Below are positions 6,111 through 59,518 of a stretch of 64,000 bases of DNA, piece after piece. The notes below the pieces were generated by a model. It searched no databases, was not told the DNA's origin, and worked only from the letters and a program-made list of their open reading frames with translations. Made by a program: the position numbers and the translations under genes. The stretch comes from an uncultured Alphaproteobacteria bacterium (GTDB lineage Bacteria; Pseudomonadota; Alphaproteobacteria; RF32; CAG-239), in the NCBI GenBank assembly GCA_944391705.1, contig CALXUN010000003.1, forward strand, positions 26,208 to 90,207, written 5' to 3'. The stretch's first letter is position 1. The number at the start of each line of letters is the position of its first letter.

Positions 6111-6187
<77 letters not shown>

Positions 6188-6273
6188 GTTGTGAAAGAGG
6201 AAGTTTATACTTCCTCTTTTTTCATATCCAGAATACATTGAAAAGTTAAAGGAACCGCGGACTTCATCTTTTA

Positions 6274-6372
6274 TTTTGATGGTCGCGCCCTATTCTCCAG
6301 TATCTTTGTTTTTTTTGCCAAAATCGGTTCAAAACACCCCAAATATATACTTTTTTGAAGGTCTGAACAGCC
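6274..6372. repeat. left copy of the 99-bp direct repeat
   Basis: Matches 14544-14642 with one extra T in a T-run and one C/T difference. The flanks diverge immediately beyond ...gaacagcc. Confidence 0.9.
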
Positions 6373-6577
6373 CAAACAACGCCCTTCAAGAGATTACCAT
6401 GTTTTTATTGTTTCCACAGGCGCTTTTTGACCAAACTTCCTCTTTTGGTTCTTTTTGTATAAGAGGCAATTATATTGATACAAATATTTTTCTTTTAATT
6501 TCAATCTGATGCGTTTTTTTGAAAATTTTTGGAAACGGTTTTTGATTTTATACGGGTGATCCTGTCGGAGGTTCAAA

Positions 6578-6730
6578 ATGACAGACATTCAAAAAATCAT
6601 ACAACTTTTACTGCCGGAACTTTTGGCTTTGATTGATGGAAAAAATAGTCCGGATTTGTTGCAGAAAGGACTGGATAACAAGAGAATAAAGAGCATTCAT
6701 GTTGTTGAGAAAGGAGTTGAAAATGGTGGA
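6578..6730 (+). CDS. small ORF (50 aa) upstream of and overlapping the DUF2924 gene
   Basis: GGAGG lies 7 nt upstream of the ATG. Encodes MTDIQKIIQLLLPELLALIDGKNSPDLLQKGLDNKRIKSIHVVEKGVENGGN. Not in the ORF track. Confidence 0.3.
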
Positions 6731-7136
6731 AACTGATGTTTTACGGCTCAACGATATGAGTGTTGGCGAGTTAAAAGAAATGTGGCGGCAATATTTTGAC
6801 AGCGAGCCGATTTGGAAAACCAAGCGTTTTTATATTCCCAGACTTGCCTATCGAATGCAGGAACTTGCCTATGGCGGCGTTCCGGAACATATTAAAAGCC
6901 TATTGCTTGGCAAAACAGTTTTGAAACACGCCGAGGACAACGATGGCACGTGCCTTCCTCCGGTTGGAACCCGTCTGGTTAAGACCTACCGCGGAAAAGA
7001 ATATAATGTTATTGTTTCTACCGCCGGCTTTCAATTTGAGGGGATTTATTACAAAAGTCTGTCCGCGGTTGCTTTAAAAATCACGGGCAAACGAATTTCC
7101 GGACGCTTTTTCTTTGGATTGGGAGAGAATAAATGA
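6723..7136 (+). CDS. DUF2924-family protein (typical partner of large serine recombinases)
   Basis: Start MVETDVLRLNDMSVGELKEMWRQYFD... with an AAGGAG RBS. The 3' end overlaps the recombinase start (ATGA). Confidence 0.7.
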   Translation: MVETDVLRLNDMSVGELKEMWRQYFDSEPIWKTKRFYIPRLAYRMQELAYGGVPEHIKSLLLGKTVLKHAEDNDGTCLPPVGTRLVKTYRGKEYNVIVSTAGFQFEGIYYKSLSAVALKITGKRISGRFFFGLGENK

Positions 7137-7938
7137 AAACCATACGATGTGCCGTTTATACCCGAAAATCAACTGAAGATGGTCTGGAAAAAGAATTTAA
7201 CACGCTGGAAGCGCAACGGGAATCCGGCGAAAACTACATTAAAAGCCAGGCTTATCAAGGCTGGGAAATCATCCCCACCCATTATGACGATGGCGGTTAT
7301 TCCGGTGGCACATTGAAACGTCCGGCTTTGCAACAGCTTTTAAAGGATGTTGAGGCTGGAATGGTTGATATGATTGTTGTTTATAAAATCGACAGGCTGA
7401 CACGTTCGCTGATTGATTTTTCAAAACTTGTTGAAATTTTTGACCGTAATCAATGTTCTTTTGTGTCAGTGACGCAGAATTTTAACACTTATGATTCCAT
7501 GGGGCGCCTGACGCTGAATGTTTTACTTTCTTTTGCTCAATTTGAGCGGGAGGTTATTACCGAACGTATCCGGGATAAAGTGGACGCTTCCAAAAAGAAG
7601 GGCATGTGGATAGGCTTTTGCCGGCTGTCCGCGCTCCCAAATACCGGTGTTGTCTGCCGGATATTATCTACACGCCGCAGGAAATTGTTTTTATGGATAA
7701 GCGTCCGCTTAAAGTCCGTCCGAATCAGGAGCAGATATCTTTATGGAAACAGGTGATGCTGGAGTGGCTGCCCATATTATCGGTTGATGAACGCCGGCTG
7801 GTTTGGAAAAGAGCCAACCGTATTCCGTGGAAACTTCTTTGCCGGGAGTTTGGATTATGCAAAAGTAATTTATGTGCCAGGCATTCCAAGGCCTTGATGA
7901 AAATTGAGTTCTTTCTCAAAGGATGTAAAAATGTCTAG
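7133..7938 (+). pseudogene. large serine recombinase, frameshifted and 3'-truncated
   Basis: The N-terminal catalytic domain is intact (YTRKST..., the S nucleophile region, VYKIDRLTRS, ...KKKGMWIG). The reading then moves across two other frames (the frame at 7660-7938 encodes ...RPLKVRPNQEQISLWKQVMLEWL, the recombinase-domain helix). It stops after about 270 codons in total, whereas large serine recombinases run to about 500. Confidence 0.7.
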
Positions 7939-8103
7939 GACATCTTAGCTATAGACACTTTTGTGAAAAAGCCTTATTAATGAGGATATAATCAGGGACG
8001 AAGTATGAAAGCGTCCCTTTTTATGTTTTTTATTGACTTTTTGAAATTTAAGTTCTAAGGGAGATATAAATAAAAATTTTTATGTTTCACCATTAAAATT
8101 ATT

Positions 8104-8646
8104 TTGCGTATGAAAGATGTAAGACCAAAAATCAAACAGCTGATTAGGAATTTTCCAGTTCCGGCATGGGATCCAAATCGACACTGTATCGATTTGCCGC
8201 GAGGTGATGCACCCGATATTCCATTCTGTCATTATACCCCTTTAAAAACGTTTTTCCATCGAGGAAATAAATTTGAAGTCTTGGATTTCAAGTATGACTA
8301 CAGTGGAACACATCTGGAGCCAATATTGCGGATTACAATTGACGGCGTCATGTACCATGTTGCAACGTGTTCCCAATGGGGTGAAGAACTCCTGTATGAA
8401 ATTTTCTTCTGCAAATGTAGCGATCTTCCTAATGAAATGGAACTTCAATACACGGTAAAAGAGCCTCACGAAATATTTGATATTTCGGTTACGGGAACGG
8501 TAGAAATTCATCACGAGTACAGAAGTGATCACCAAAAACACTTGGATACAAAAGATTCTGATGTTATTGAGTTCTTTCAGAACTTGATAAATCTATGCCG
8601 TGATTTTTATCTTGCCAACAAGGCGGAACTGGATTCGATGCTTTAA
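8104..8646 (+). CDS. hypothetical protein (180 aa)
   Basis: ORF with no recognisable motif. Sits immediately upstream of the MetK-like gene. Confidence 0.5.
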   Translation: MRMKDVRPKIKQLIRNFPVPAWDPNRHCIDLPRGDAPDIPFCHYTPLKTFFHRGNKFEVLDFKYDYSGTHLEPILRITIDGVMYHVATCSQWGEELLYEIFFCKCSDLPNEMELQYTVKEPHEIFDISVTGTVEIHHEYRSDHQKHLDTKDSDVIEFFQNLINLCRDFYLANKAELDSML

Positions 8647-8717
8647 TGCTTAATCTGCTCTTTTCCTCTGCATTCAAGATGCAGGGGATTTTTTTTATGC
8701 AAGAAAGGAAATATGCA

Positions 8718-9584
8718 ATGATTAAAACAGCGGAAGCGGTGTCGCTTGGACACCCTGACAAAATGGCGGATTATATTTCGTCTTATATTTTAGACAGGAT
8801 GATTGAACAAGACGCGGCGGTCAAATATGCCGTTGAAGTAATGGTAAAAGATAATACGGTTGTGTTGGGCGGTGAAATCACGGGTGATGTAAACCTGGCA
8901 AGAATTAATTTTTATGTTACCGAAGCGCTGGCGGAAATCGGGTACGATAAGTTTTACAGCCATCGTTGGGGAAATTACGCCATTAATCCCGAGAAACTGC
9001 AAATTATCAATCTTATCGGCAAGCAGTCGGCAGATATTTCACAAGGAGTTGAACAAGACGGCTGGGGTGATCAGGGGGTATTTGTCGGTTACGCTTGTCA
9101 AGGTACGGGCAACATCAGCCGCGAACAATATCTGGCCAAAAAATTATGCAACGCTTTATATGAGTATGCTTTGCAAAACATCCACCTGGGCATTGACATC
9201 AAAACGCAGATTACACTTAATGAGCTTGGCGGTGTGGAAACGGCGGTTGTGGCTGTTCCGATGCTTAAAGATGTTGACCTGACGACTTTTATTGTTTTGA
9301 CGCTGGGAGAGGAGCCGGAAAATATTATTGTCAATGGCACGGGAACATATAAATATCATTCATCCGTGGCCGATTGCGGCGTGGCCGGTCGAAAGCTTGC
9401 GTGCGATTTTTATGGAACGGCTTGCCCGATCGGCGGCGGAAGTCCATGGACAAAGGATGCCAGCAAAGCTGACGTAACACTTAATTTTTATGCCCGTAAA
9501 CTGGCCTTGGAATATCTGCAAGACAATGACGAGTGTTTTGTTTACCTTTCATCTTGTATCGGCCGGGATTTCAACATTGCTTAA
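8718..9584 (+). CDS. divergent, C-terminally shortened S-adenosylmethionine synthetase (MetK)-like protein
   Basis: GHPDKMADYISSYILD aligns with the MetK GHPDKIADQISDAVLD. GGEITG, IGKQSADISQGV, GWGDQGVFVGYA and ...DCGVAGRKLACDFYG..GGGSPWTKDASKADVTLNFYARKLA align with the MetK GAGDQGLMFGYA and [37 protein letters not shown] blocks. It is about 290 aa against about 385 and lacks the C-terminal ~80 residues. AAGGAA RBS. Confidence 0.75.
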   Translation: MIKTAEAVSLGHPDKMADYISSYILDRMIEQDAAVKYAVEVMVKDNTVVLGGEITGDVNLARINFYVTEALAEIGYDKFYSHRWGNYAINPEKLQIINLIGKQSADISQGVEQDGWGDQGVFVGYACQGTGNISREQYLAKKLCNALYEYALQNIHLGIDIKTQITLNELGGVETAVVAVPMLKDVDLTTFIVLTLGEEPENIIVNGTGTYKYHSSVADCGVAGRKLACDFYGTACPIGGGSPWTKDASKADVTLNFYARKLALEYLQDNDECFVYLSSCIGRDFNIA

Positions 9585-42232: not shown

Positions 42233-42502
42233 ATGGAATGGTTTTTCTTCGGACTGTTAATCGCTTTTTGCCTTATGTCGGTACTGCCCGGTTTCATACC
42301 GCGCATTAAAACACCGATGGAAGAAGGCGTTGCCGTTTTAGTATATAAAACCGCCGAAGACCATATCTGGGTCGGCGAATATATCAGAAACGGCGAGGTC
42401 TGTATTGCGCTCATATCCTGCCACAAAAAACACCGGGCAGGCGATGAGGTTGAAATAAAACCCGGAAACCATACAACTATTCCGGTTTTTATGGAAGTGT
42501 AA
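42233..42502 (+). CDS. small hypothetical protein with N-terminal TM segment
   Basis: 89-aa ORF. Confidence 0.4.
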   Translation: MEWFFFGLLIAFCLMSVLPGFIPRIKTPMEEGVAVLVYKTAEDHIWVGEYIRNGEVCIALISCHKKHRAGDEVEIKPGNHTTIPVFMEV

Positions 42503-42504
42503 AA

Positions 42505-42650
42505 TAGATATCCCCCAGTAAACTGGGGGTTCTATAACAGCTACAAACCTTACGGTTTGACCACGCTCGTTGGCGTGGAACGGTATCTAACGATACCTTG
42601 GCATTCAGCCCCGAGTAAACTCGGGGTTTTCTGTAAGGCAACTAATAAAA
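42505..42650. repeat. structured ~146-bp repeat element, copy 1 (multi-hairpin; possible sRNA/REP/MITE-like)
   Basis: About 90% identical to 58780-58926. Contains hairpins cccccagt..actggggg, ccacgc..gcgtgg, ggtatc..gatacc and ccccgagt..actcgggg. It is followed by a terminator hairpin at 42653-42680. Confidence 0.8.
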
Positions 42651-42676
42651 GCTGCTTTTAAAGCAGCTTTTATTTT

Positions 42677-43342
42677 TTAATCAAGCAGTTCCAAAGTGTT
42701 TTTCTGCAATTCCAAAATTCTCTCATAATTCTTTTTATCTTTGGCGTATTGATAAATTTCCAAAAGACGGGCACAAATTGCCAACGTATTTTTGCACTTT
42801 TCCAAAACGGATACATTTTCTTCCGTTACAAAATTTAAGGCATGTTCCAGATATTTTGCCTGTAGTCTTAAATCATCCGTTCCGTTGGCCAGCTCCATAA
42901 ATGCCTGACGTTTCATATTATCATCTTCAATCAAGGCCATTTGTTCATGCGTTTTCCGCCATCCGGCCTCATCCTGAAGTTCACCGTAGATGTGGGCAAT
43001 TTTTTCCAACACATGGTGCTTGTCACGGATGTTTTTGGTAAACTCCAGCGCATTTTGGTAATATTCAACCGCATACAGATAGTTATGCGCATCAGCCTGC
43101 TCATTATTTTTTTGTAAAAATATATCGCCGATATTATTATATGTCCAAAACAATATCTGATTGCGTTTGACACTGTCATCAAGCTGACACTGCTTGGAAT
43201 GCGAGCAATAATCTATCACCTCGTTATAAGCCAGCAGTTTATCGTCAATATCACGCATATATTTGGCTTTTTCATAAGCCATACGATATACTTTCATCAA
43301 ATCATTTGAACTTGTAAAAGGCCTGTTGGTATATCTTAACAT
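42677..43342 (-). CDS. hypothetical protein, helical/TPR-like
   Basis: 221-aa ORF. Confidence 0.5.
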   Translation of the reverse strand: MLRYTNRPFTSSNDLMKVYRMAYEKAKYMRDIDDKLLAYNEVIDYCSHSKQCQLDDSVKRNQILFWTYNNIGDIFLQKNNEQADAHNYLYAVEYYQNALEFTKNIRDKHHVLEKIAHIYGELQDEAGWRKTHEQMALIEDDNMKRQAFMELANGTDDLRLQAKYLEHALNFVTEENVSVLEKCKNTLAICARLLEIYQYAKDKKNYERILELQKNTLELLD

Positions 43343-57968: not shown

Positions 57969-58646
57969 ATGAAACATATTAATGAAAACGGCCGTTCCAT
58001 GGTCGAAATGTTAGGTGTTCTGGCAATTATCGGTGTTCTGTCTGTCGGTGGTATCGCCGGCTACTCCAAAGCCATGAACAAATACAAAATCAACAAAACC
58101 ACTGACCAGGTTTCGATGCTGGTTGCCAACATCCGCACCCTGTTCTCTTCTCAGGGCGATTATGCCGGTTTGAGCAATGGCCAGGCCATCAAATTCGGCG
58201 TTGTCCCGAATGATATGTATAAAGCTTCTTCTAACAATACTTATGGAAGTAACTACGACATTAGTAATGCTTTTAACGGTAAGGTGTTTATTGCTTCCGC
58301 TGATGCAAGAGGTACAGGTGATAATGAAGCATTCATCGTTTCTTACAACGGTTTGACAGCTGAAGCTTGTGTGACGATTGCCACCGGCGACTGGGGTTCT
58401 GGTCAAGGTTCCGGTTTGATTGCTATTGCAGCTGCAGGCACAAATGGTACAGCTGCAACAACAGGAGGCGCTGCTAGTAAACTGACTGGTATTTATACAA
58501 CCACAACAACAGGCTCGGCAGAGGCTGCTTCAGCCGTTTCTATTCCGGGAAGCAAAGATCATCCGACACCGATGAGCGTTACCAATGCGGTTGATGCTTG
58601 TAACGGAAGTGGTTCGACCAACTCAGTTGCTTGGAAATACTACTAA
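57969..58646 (+). CDS. type IV pilin / pseudopilin-like protein with Thr/Gly/Ala-rich C-terminal region
   Basis: Prepilin leader MKHINENG|RSMVEMLGVLAIIGVLSV (G-1, E+5, hydrophobic helix). C-terminal stretches TTGGAASKLTGIYTTTTTGSAE. Confidence 0.65.
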   Translation: MKHINENGRSMVEMLGVLAIIGVLSVGGIAGYSKAMNKYKINKTTDQVSMLVANIRTLFSSQGDYAGLSNGQAIKFGVVPNDMYKASSNNTYGSNYDISNAFNGKVFIASADARGTGDNEAFIVSYNGLTAEACVTIATGDWGSGQGSGLIAIAAAGTNGTAATTGGAASKLTGIYTTTTTGSAEAASAVSIPGSKDHPTPMSVTNAVDACNGSGSTNSVAWKYY

Positions 58647-58779
58647 TCCTTTGGGTTTGATAGTTTCACCTTCAAAAAGACTCCCTTTCTCAAGGGAGTC
58701 TTTTTTATGTGCCTCTCTTTCCAACCCGTCATACCTGCAAACGATAGTGAGTACAAATCCTCCACATAACTGCTGCTCA

Positions 58780-58926
58780 TAGATATCCCCCAGTAAACTG
58801 GTGGTTCTATAACAGCTACAAACCTTACGGTTTGACCACGCTCGTTGGCGTGGAGCGGTGTTGTTCCAACACCTTGGCATTCAGCCCCGAGTAAACTCGG
58901 GGTTTTCTGTAAGGCAACTAATAAAA
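58780..58926. repeat. structured ~146-bp repeat element, copy 2
   Basis: See copy 1. The third hairpin here is ggtgttg..caacacc, a fully compensatory variant of ggtatc..gatacc in copy 1. Confidence 0.8.
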
Positions 58927-58967
58927 AAACACTGCTTTGAGGCAGTGTTTATAGGGGAAAACCTGTT

Positions 58968-59369
58968 TTAATTAAGCGTACACCCGCTCCCGCAATTACC
59001 AATCAAAGGAACTTCCGGAATTTTTATGTCTTTAACCAGATTTTGTGCTTCCTTGACAATCCGGCAGCTGCCGTACAAAACCGCCATTGCTGACTTTAAC
59101 GGCGCACTGCTGGCAAATTCAAAATATTCACCCGGCTCCAATTCCGGAATTTCGCCTTTAAACCCCGGTGCGTTGTCACAATAACTGTTGCCGCGGTCAT
59201 CGGTAATGTTAAAATCTTTGCCCAAAATCTGAATTCTGCCGTCCGAATTGTTTTCAATCCGCAGATAATACCCGCAGCTGTCAGCCTCATCTTCTTCCAT
59301 AAAAGCCTGACAGGCCGAAATGACGATATCATCTGTTTGCGCCGTAACATATTCCGTGTCAAAATCCAT
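58968..59369 (-). CDS. apaG: ApaG (DUF525) domain protein
   Basis: ...YYLRIENNSDGRIQILGKDFNITDDRGNSY...GEIPELEPGEYFEFASSAPL resembles the ApaG core. Confidence 0.6.
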   Translation of the reverse strand: MDFDTEYVTAQTDDIVISACQAFMEEDEADSCGYYLRIENNSDGRIQILGKDFNITDDRGNSYCDNAPGFKGEIPELEPGEYFEFASSAPLKSAMAVLYGSCRIVKEAQNLVKDIKIPEVPLIGNCGSGCTLN

Positions 59370-59518
59370 AACACAATTCCTTTGTTGCAATTTAACTTTG
59401 TTAACTATTGATTAACTTTTATTGATTCGCAACAACCGATGTGTTTTTTTCACAAACTTATACACAACAAAAAACGGAGATTTTCATCCCCGTTTTTTGT
59501 AGCAAATTTTTTCTTTAG

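Follow-up and report, generated by a model that had tools for sequence, protein, structure and literature searches.

A probable IS200-derived miniature transposon found mainly behind intrinsic terminators in uncultured gut Alphaproteobacteria

The insertion sequence (IS) IS608 inserts 3′ of the tetranucleotide TTAC, carries subterminal hairpins but no inverted repeats, generates no target duplication, and has guide tetranucleotides 5′ of its hairpins (PMC5934647; PMC7290912). IS200, at 707 bp, has been termed the smallest autonomous IS known (PMC4513863), and derivatives that consist only of the ends of IS200/IS605 elements, the palindrome-associated transposable elements (PATEs), have been described, for example, in Haloquadratum walsbyi (PMC3119063) and Halanaerobium (PMC7290912). 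Here, we analyzed a hairpin-rich repeat that occurs twice in a stretch of 64,000 nucleotides (nt) from contig CALXUN010000003.1 of an uncultured alphaproteobacterium; this whole stretch is referred to below as the window. Most probably (we put the probability at about 0.9), the repeat is a non-autonomous miniature transposon, i.e., a PATE-type MITE (miniature inverted-repeat transposable element) that descends from a very small IS of the IS200 group. We favor this assignment because the repeat shows precise presence/absence polymorphism, lies in many unrelated contexts, and shares its ends with a transposase-encoding parent.

The two copies in the window span positions 42504-42644 (141 nt) and 58779-58920 (142 nt) and differ by a G->T substitution at 58802, an A/G difference at 42580/58856, and the fourth of their hairpins (H4), being otherwise identical. 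The initial annotation, made from the window sequence, had recognized both copies, as sequence comparison bears out, but had drawn the first from 42505 to 42650 or 42680; comparison of filled and empty sites refined the inserted unit of copy 1 to the limits given above, and those of copy 2 were set by analogy. The exact 221-amino-acid (aa) protein encoded next to copy 1 was found on 14 public metagenome contigs, in which the orthologous intergenic site was compared. The site is filled in the window and in contigs L001, L002, and L004, whereas L003, L005, L007, and L009 have a precise empty site, with GTGTAAA joined directly to ATAAAAGC, that is exactly 141 nt shorter, retains the target TTAT, and is flanked by the same, unchanged terminator. 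Three other contigs (L006, L008, and L010) end within the element, as multi-copy repeats break assemblies.

The element is not confined to this locus. In a survey of its spread, a scan of the motif CCCCNAGTAAACTNGGGGTT against one genome per species listed more than 118 matching stretches, nearly all of them in metagenome-assembled genomes (MAGs) of uncultured gut Alphaproteobacteria from humans, deer, horse, and cattle. When the listed loci were searched with the element by BLAST, at least 50 full-length copies with 49 distinct flanks were obtained; individual MAGs hold from 3 to 12 or more copies among the matches listed, and about 30 listed loci match the element only over its first 33 nt (window plus strand).

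The parent can be recognized among these loci. In L020, L066, L077, L108, and L116, an identical 33-nt right end (RE) and a homologous left end (LE) flank an open reading frame (ORF) of 141 aa, which runs on the strand opposite to the window plus strand. These elements (L020:941-1495, 555 bp; L066:3504-4067; L077:3-568; L116:133-687; and that in L108) are about 555-566 bp long and consist of a 69-nt LE, a 426-nt tnpA gene, and a 60-nt RE, making this autonomous-looking IS shorter than IS200. The 141-aa protein matches the Pfam family Y1_Tnp (E=1e-31), is homologous to the TnpA proteins of IS608 and ISDra2 of solved structure, and contains an HUH motif (HVHFVM) and a catalytic tyrosine region (SRGYFVSS). 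Among NCBIfam models, it scores 122 bits against transpos_IS200 (cut-off 55) vs 28.9 bits against REP_Tyr_transpos (cut-off 80), the model of the transposases associated with repetitive extragenic palindromic (REP) sequences, known as RAYTs. The gene is multi-copy, has unrelated flanks, and is bounded by the ends of the element; it is therefore part of an IS.

The relationship between this IS and the MITE extends beyond the extreme termini. The RE hairpin of the MITE (H1) is identical to that of the 555-bp IS, H2 is partly homologous to the hairpin located just 3′ of the tnpA stop codon, and the LE of the MITE, TAGTTGCCTTACAGAAAA, is homologous to that of the IS, TAATGCCTTACAGACTA; this last homology was read directly from the sequences, as a MAFFT alignment of the MITE with the IS misplaces the LE. 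Short elements in L038 and L063 combine an IS-type left hairpin with a MITE interior and thus bridge the two forms, and in L066 an IS and a MITE reside on one contig. The CCCCNAGTAAACTNGGGGTT motif is also present in Firmicutes, namely, in Colibacter massiliensis (L029/L074), a Neglectibacter MAG (L053/L056/L057/L061), and a Dialister MAG (L062/L126). The Colibacter copy adjoins a TnpA that is only 37% identical to the 141-aa protein, and the end hairpin may be either conserved across distant IS200-group elements or horizontally spread.

The organization of the ends closely resembles that of IS200, IS608, and ISDra2, with which the parent also shares an IS200-type Y1 HUH transposase. Read on the minus strand of the window, the order is host terminator hairpin, T-tract ending in TTAT, TAGTTGCCTTACAGAAAA, H5, H4, H3, H2, H1, ATATCTAT, and host DNA. 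The end hairpins together with their 3′ flanks align in direct orientation (score 18, vs 12 when inverted), and the termini, ATAGATATCC and TAGTTGCCTT, are unrelated, so that the element lacks terminal inverted repeats. At 48 of the 49 independent insertions, the LE flank is TTAT; it is T-rich at positions -5 to -9, with the RE flank being unconstrained. The last 8 nt of the RE, ATATCTAT, are conserved in nearly all copies, and their CTAT end is kept regardless of the flank, including in those in which the LE flank is TCAT, ATAT, or TAAT, and thus, no target duplication takes place. As in IS608, the insertion point is 3′ of a fixed tetranucleotide that remains in the LE flank, which is TTAT here and TTAC in IS608; the hairpins are placed 18 nt from the LE terminus and 8 nt from the RE terminus, compared with 19 and about 10 nt in IS608. 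The four bases next to the LE hairpin of the MITE are guide-like AAAA, and the target is TTAT, where IS608 combines AAAG with TTAC; a guide-target pairing rule is only suggestive. Unlike IS200, IS608, and ISDra2, the window copies contain no gene, the parent has only about 555 bp, the target is TTAT, and the insertions are strongly associated with terminators.

By analogy with IS608 and ISDra2, a TnpA dimer, supplied in trans, would bind both subterminal hairpins on the single-stranded top strand and would cut it at two points, 3′ of the flanking TTAT and 3′ of the terminal CTAT. The element would then leave as a single-stranded circle, with the donor being precisely resealed, and the circle would integrate into single-stranded DNA 3′ of another TTAT. 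The hairpins would act as DNA recognition structures, which would account for the compensatory changes in the end stems described below. New copies gather at the 3′ edge of intrinsic terminators, as either a preferred target or the least harmful landing place. The repeat resembles the PATEs in that it is short and non-coding, has kept of an IS200/IS605 element only the ends with their hairpins, and is presumably mobilized in trans. It departs from the described PATEs in its host clade, uncultured gut Alphaproteobacteria, which is new for such elements; in its interior, which holds three more conserved hairpins and is not simply the joined ends of the parent; and in its LE hairpin, which in most copies has diverged from that of the parent.

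Several observations concern the ends and insertion sites of individual copies. At L002:10700-10735, the orthologue of window positions 42627-42644, the terminal LE segment of the MITE, TTTCTGTAAGGCAACTAA, is present as an 18-nt tandem duplication; in this one strain, the duplicated 18 nt are exactly the stretch from the predicted cleavage site to the LE hairpin. In L114 (3524-3718) and in the sequence flanking L036:4270-4414, the RE of a full copy is joined directly to a degenerate LE fragment, and this RE-LE junction is reminiscent of a tandem insertion or of a circle junction that was trapped. Furthermore, L101:363-510 and L055:7418-7558, from two MAG species, occupy the same insertion site, with near-identical flanks on the RE side and a homologous terminator, and the divergence between the two elements themselves is about 15% and includes an H1 variant that is compensatory. 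The observation suggests that one site was used repeatedly or that sequence was exchanged between copies.

A number of points weigh against the derivation of the repeat from such an IS. The sequences compared all come from metagenome assemblies, and assemblers can mis-thread a 141-nt repeat. The 64-kb window itself yields no tblastn match to TnpA and contains no transposase gene, and several MITE-rich MAGs have no tnpA among the matches listed, with the proviso that MAGs break at repeats. The parent IS has nothing that corresponds to the internal hairpins H3 and H4, and the RE hairpin of copy 2 bears a mismatch. The IS-type LE has ACTA at the hairpin and is flanked by GTAT, GTTT, or ATAT, with no consistent guide-target register found. 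Finally, mobilization in trans is a step that we infer from the related transposons.

The secondary structure of the repeat is pronounced. Both strands fold as five consecutive hairpins that are far more stable than shuffled sequence, with z-scores of the RNA minimum free energy (MFE) of -9.0 and -5.4 for the plus strand of the two copies and of -8.0 and -4.9 for their minus strand; the DNA fold yields a z-score of -9.6. The succession of hairpins in the initial annotation is thus reproduced, with five as the count in RNA and DNA folds alike, as is the kinship of the palindromes near the two ends, CCCCCAGTAAACTGGGGG (H1) and CCCCGAGTAAACTCGGGG (H5): a degenerate palindrome pattern has 8 matches vs 0.2 expected by chance. 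In an alignment of 40 distinct copies, tested on the five-hairpin structure with 500 shuffles and slid controls, 95.2% of the cells are paired and 12 pairs have changed on both sides. None of the 500 shuffles reaches the observed covariation, and slid controls give 1-5 pairs changed on both sides. Such pairs are most frequent in H1 (5/7) and H5 (3/7), followed by H4 (2/7), H2 (1/6), and the mostly invariant H3 (1/7). Hence the further covariation that had been anticipated among other copies does exist, mainly in H1 and H5. This pattern supports selection on secondary structure across the family, strongest in the two end hairpins, and fits what is expected of single-stranded DNA hairpins bound by a Y1 transposase rather than of RNA.

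The proposal of structural selection, which thus stands for the family, originally rested on H4, and for the specific difference between the window copies, it does not hold. Copies 1 and 2 (H4 alleles A and B, respectively) had been said to differ at every stem position of this hairpin. In fact, pairs 1-3 and 5 are common to both alleles (4/6), two pairs are compensatory (A-T to G-C and C-G to T-A), and one pair is added. The family contains three forms of H4 (GGTATC-TAAC-GATACC, GGTGTC-TAAC-GACACC, and GGTGTTG-TTC-CAACACC); therefore, intermediates exist. At the copy 1 locus, allele B is found in L001 and in the more distant strain L004, and allele A in L002. L001 matches the window base for base across 20,666 bp apart from 8 differences, all of which fall within 42580-42594. 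Confinement of the differences to H4 implies a block exchange of alleles that already existed and not covariation in place. Such an exchange could be due to gene conversion among copies, to precise excision and the subsequent insertion, at the same TTAT, of a different copy, or to mis-threading by the assembler.

The pronounced folding brings up the possibility that the repeat is a small RNA (sRNA) gene family, or a structured RNA module associated with the 3′-untranslated region (3′-UTR) or terminator, that is kept for an RNA function, with mobility being incidental. We consider this improbable. Stable hairpins do form on either strand, one internal hairpin, H4, shows some compensatory change, and on the plus strand, a host terminator follows, so that read-through transcripts of the 89-aa gene upstream of copy 1 would include the element; besides, Salmonella is known to have sRNAs derived from the 5′-UTR of IS200 (PMC5435999). 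However, no Rfam family matches the element at its threshold or close to it: the sole match in the whole window in an Rfam 15 scan at gathering cut-offs is a tRNA-Met at 6111-6184, and a permissive scan of 42400-42750 yields only sub-threshold matches that are due to the host terminator. ARAGORN detects no tRNA or tmRNA at the element, and a scan for sigma-70-like promoters finds none inside either copy. The flanks differ at all 49 sites, so there is no common external promoter, the element is absent from the locus in close strains, and the covariation centers on the transposase-type end hairpins rather than on the interior.

Even less likely is an element of the REP or bacterial interspersed mosaic element (BIME) type, i.e., a REPIN (a doublet of REP sequences) spread by a domesticated RAYT. 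There are obvious similarities, as both are GC-rich extragenic palindromes that follow genes and lie near terminators, and both are associated with Y1 HUH enzymes of the same superfamily. Nevertheless, the partner protein scores as an IS200 transposase and falls far short of the RAYT cut-off; its gene is not a single-copy RAYT gene but behaves as an IS, in multiple copies with unrelated flanks and bounded by the element ends; the two end hairpins, with their loops and 3′ flanks, match directly and not as an inverted REP doublet; and the element is a fixed unit of 141 nt with three extra hairpins. The protein scores and the direct hairpins led us to reject the REPIN-RAYT model. A MITE of the classical cut-and-paste kind (IS630/Tc1-like or Correia-like), which would have inverted repeats at its termini and duplicate a TA or ATA target, would agree with the ATA found at both junctions of both window copies, and the end palindromes are, being palindromes, also alike when inverted. 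This model was rejected as well and is hardly tenable, given that the extreme termini are not inverted repeats, that the CTAT end persists next to variant LE flanks, and that the partner enzyme is of the Y1/HUH and not the DDE type. Equally implausible is a segmental duplication carried along with flanking genes, an alternative already raised in the initial annotation, or an assembly artefact. Indeed, the window has two copies only, and the sequences come from metagenome assemblies, but the flanks of the two window copies are unrelated, and the 49 distinct flanks come from many MAGs and independent projects; unrelated flanks and many independent loci refute this explanation. Thus, among the identities put forward initially, the MITE is retained, and the sRNA family and the REP/BIME-like element are not.

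The most striking property of the insertion sites of this presumed MITE is their association with intrinsic terminators. In 42 of the 49 insertions (86%), the 45 nt upstream of the LE fold as a strong GC-rich hairpin, followed by a T-tract that ends in the target, and the mean MFE is -15.6 kcal/mol for the LE flank vs -5.2 for the RE flank (Wilcoxon p=9e-9). In the window background, such a hairpin accompanies 9% of all TTTTAT sites and 16% of the intergenic ones. When unoccupied TTAT sites are stratified by T-run length, 5-14% have an upstream hairpin, compared with all MITE sites with six or more T (25/25) or with four T (6/6); a taste for long T-runs alone was rejected as the cause of the association because background hairpins are rare at every T-run length. 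A co-oriented ORF ends 32-72 nt upstream in 22 of the 36 cases with enough flank, and therefore, the target strand is usually the sense strand of the terminated gene. Identical, and hence recent, copies are almost all located at terminators too, and 4 of 7 IS left flanks show a terminator.

It is tempting to propose that this IS200-group family actively targets intrinsic terminators, with the transposase-transposon complex integrating at the TTAT in which the T-tract behind the hairpin ends, and does not merely survive there, but we regard this proposal as tentative and more doubtful than probable. Judged by sequence alone, the association is compatible with either targeting or purifying selection. 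One possible route to targeting involves the non-template strand, which, within paused termination complexes or at hairpin-stalled forks, could be accessible in single-stranded form. Alternatively, the arrangement of a hairpin plus about 8 nt ending in TAT may imitate the right end of the element itself. In the searchable literature, which leaves out subscription journals, TnPedia, and ISfinder and so allows for a prior description, we found no description of terminator targeting by IS200-family elements.

Group IIC introns insert directly 3′ of intrinsic terminator stem-loops, a "safe haven" in which genes are spared. Like these introns (see also PMC7306698), the element is inserted directly behind intrinsic terminators; unlike it, they rely on a ribozyme and a reverse transcriptase, and neither intron features nor an Rfam intron match are present here.

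Table 1. Positions of the two MITE copies, their parts, and the adjoining host terminators in the window
Feature	Position	Strand	Remarks
MITE copy 1	42504-42644	-	141 nt; transposase-sense ("top") strand is the window minus strand
RE terminal 8 nt of copy 1	42504-42511	-	ATATCTAT on minus strand; element end is CTAT
RE subterminal hairpin H1 of copy 1	42512-42529	-	first palindrome of the initial annotation; matches IS RE hairpin
Internal hairpin H2 of copy 1	42544-42559	-	folds
Internal hairpin H3 of copy 1	42561-42578	-	folds
Internal hairpin H4 of copy 1, allele A	42582-42597	-	GGTATC-TAAC-GATACC; copy comparison, family alignment
LE subterminal hairpin H5 of copy 1	42609-42626	-	second palindrome of the initial annotation; folds, covariation
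LE terminal 18 nt of copy 1	42627-42644	-	TAGTTGCCTTACAGAAAA on minus strand; guide-like AAAA at hairpin foot
Target TTAT of copy 1	42645-42648	-	kept in LE flank; also in empty sites
Host bidirectional intrinsic terminator at copy 1	42647-42674		between 221-aa gene (-) and 89-aa gene (+)
MITE copy 2	58779-58920	-	142 nt; H4 allele B; RE hairpin mismatch (G->T at 58802)
RE hairpin of copy 2	58787-58804	-	CCCCCAGTAAACTGGTGG; one C.T mismatch; palindrome pattern
Hairpin H4 of copy 2, allele B	58857-58873	-	GGTGTTG-TTC-CAACACC; majority allele of the family
LE hairpin of copy 2	58885-58902	-	folds, palindrome pattern
Target TTAT of copy 2	58921-58924	-	flank sequence
Host intrinsic terminator beside copy 2	58927-58950	-	terminator of 140-aa gene (58968-59390, -); element follows its T-tract

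The positions in the window are collected in Table 1. In both copies, a terminator hairpin of the convergent gene lies directly 3′ of the element on the plus strand, exactly as first described. The accompanying statement that each copy immediately follows a stop codon applies to copy 1, which is directly preceded by the stop codon of the 89-aa ORF (42500-42502), and fails for copy 2. There, the gene truly upstream, which is pilin-like, stops at 58646 and is followed by a terminator of its own at about 58676-58706; the 65-aa ORF that ends at the copy (58585-58782) looks spurious, overlapping both the pilin-like gene and this terminator. Copy 1 was inserted at the end of the minus-strand T-tract of the shared host terminator; as a result, 141 nt of structured sequence separate the 89-aa gene from that terminator, and the terminator of the 221-aa gene is intact. 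For the 140-aa gene beside copy 2, no exact product was found on record. Sites of the same type as the two occupied ones, i.e., terminators with T-tracts ending in TTTTAT, are present unoccupied in the window at 17217(+), 42133(-)/42168(+), 58708(+), 21453(-), 23639(-), and 20869(-). One of these, the window pnp terminator (42133/42168), is an unoccupied site made up of a hairpin and TTTTTTAT; in a distant relative, with 76% nucleotide identity in pnp, the gene for polynucleotide phosphorylase (PNPase) is directly followed by a MITE copy, L111:7034-7163.

The window contains other repeats. About 100 nt recur in direct orientation, 8.27 kb apart (6274-6375 and 14545-14645, 92-97% identical). 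The first copy is located about 90 nt 3′ of the tRNA-Met gene (6111-6187), and between the two copies are encoded a DUF2924 protein, a serine recombinase carrying a Resolvase domain (7133-7756), a divergent ORF similar to S-adenosylmethionine (SAM) synthetase, and two Peptidase_C39 proteins. The region 6111-14645 resembles a small island that was integrated and carries att-like repeats. Within it, a 300-nt repeat (11861-12160 vs 13964-14263, 82% identity) corresponds to paralogous ORFs with Peptidase_C39 domains (11856-12380 and 13968-14636).

For annotation, these results would replace a candidate novel structured RNA with a defined family of mobile elements of gut Alphaproteobacteria, of which the strong terminator association and the cassette-like H4 alleles are features worth recording. 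The MITE family explains contig breaks in these MAGs, and the element can serve as a presence/absence marker for strain typing. Together, the 555-bp IS and the 141-nt MITE make up a very compact IS200 system, and the natural compensatory variation in their end hairpins is useful for the study of hairpin recognition by TnpA. If terminators are indeed sought out, the family would exemplify a structure-assisted safe-haven strategy of a Y1 transposon, comparable to that of group IIC introns, and, should the association reflect targeting and not selection, it would represent a new principle of target choice in single-strand transposition.

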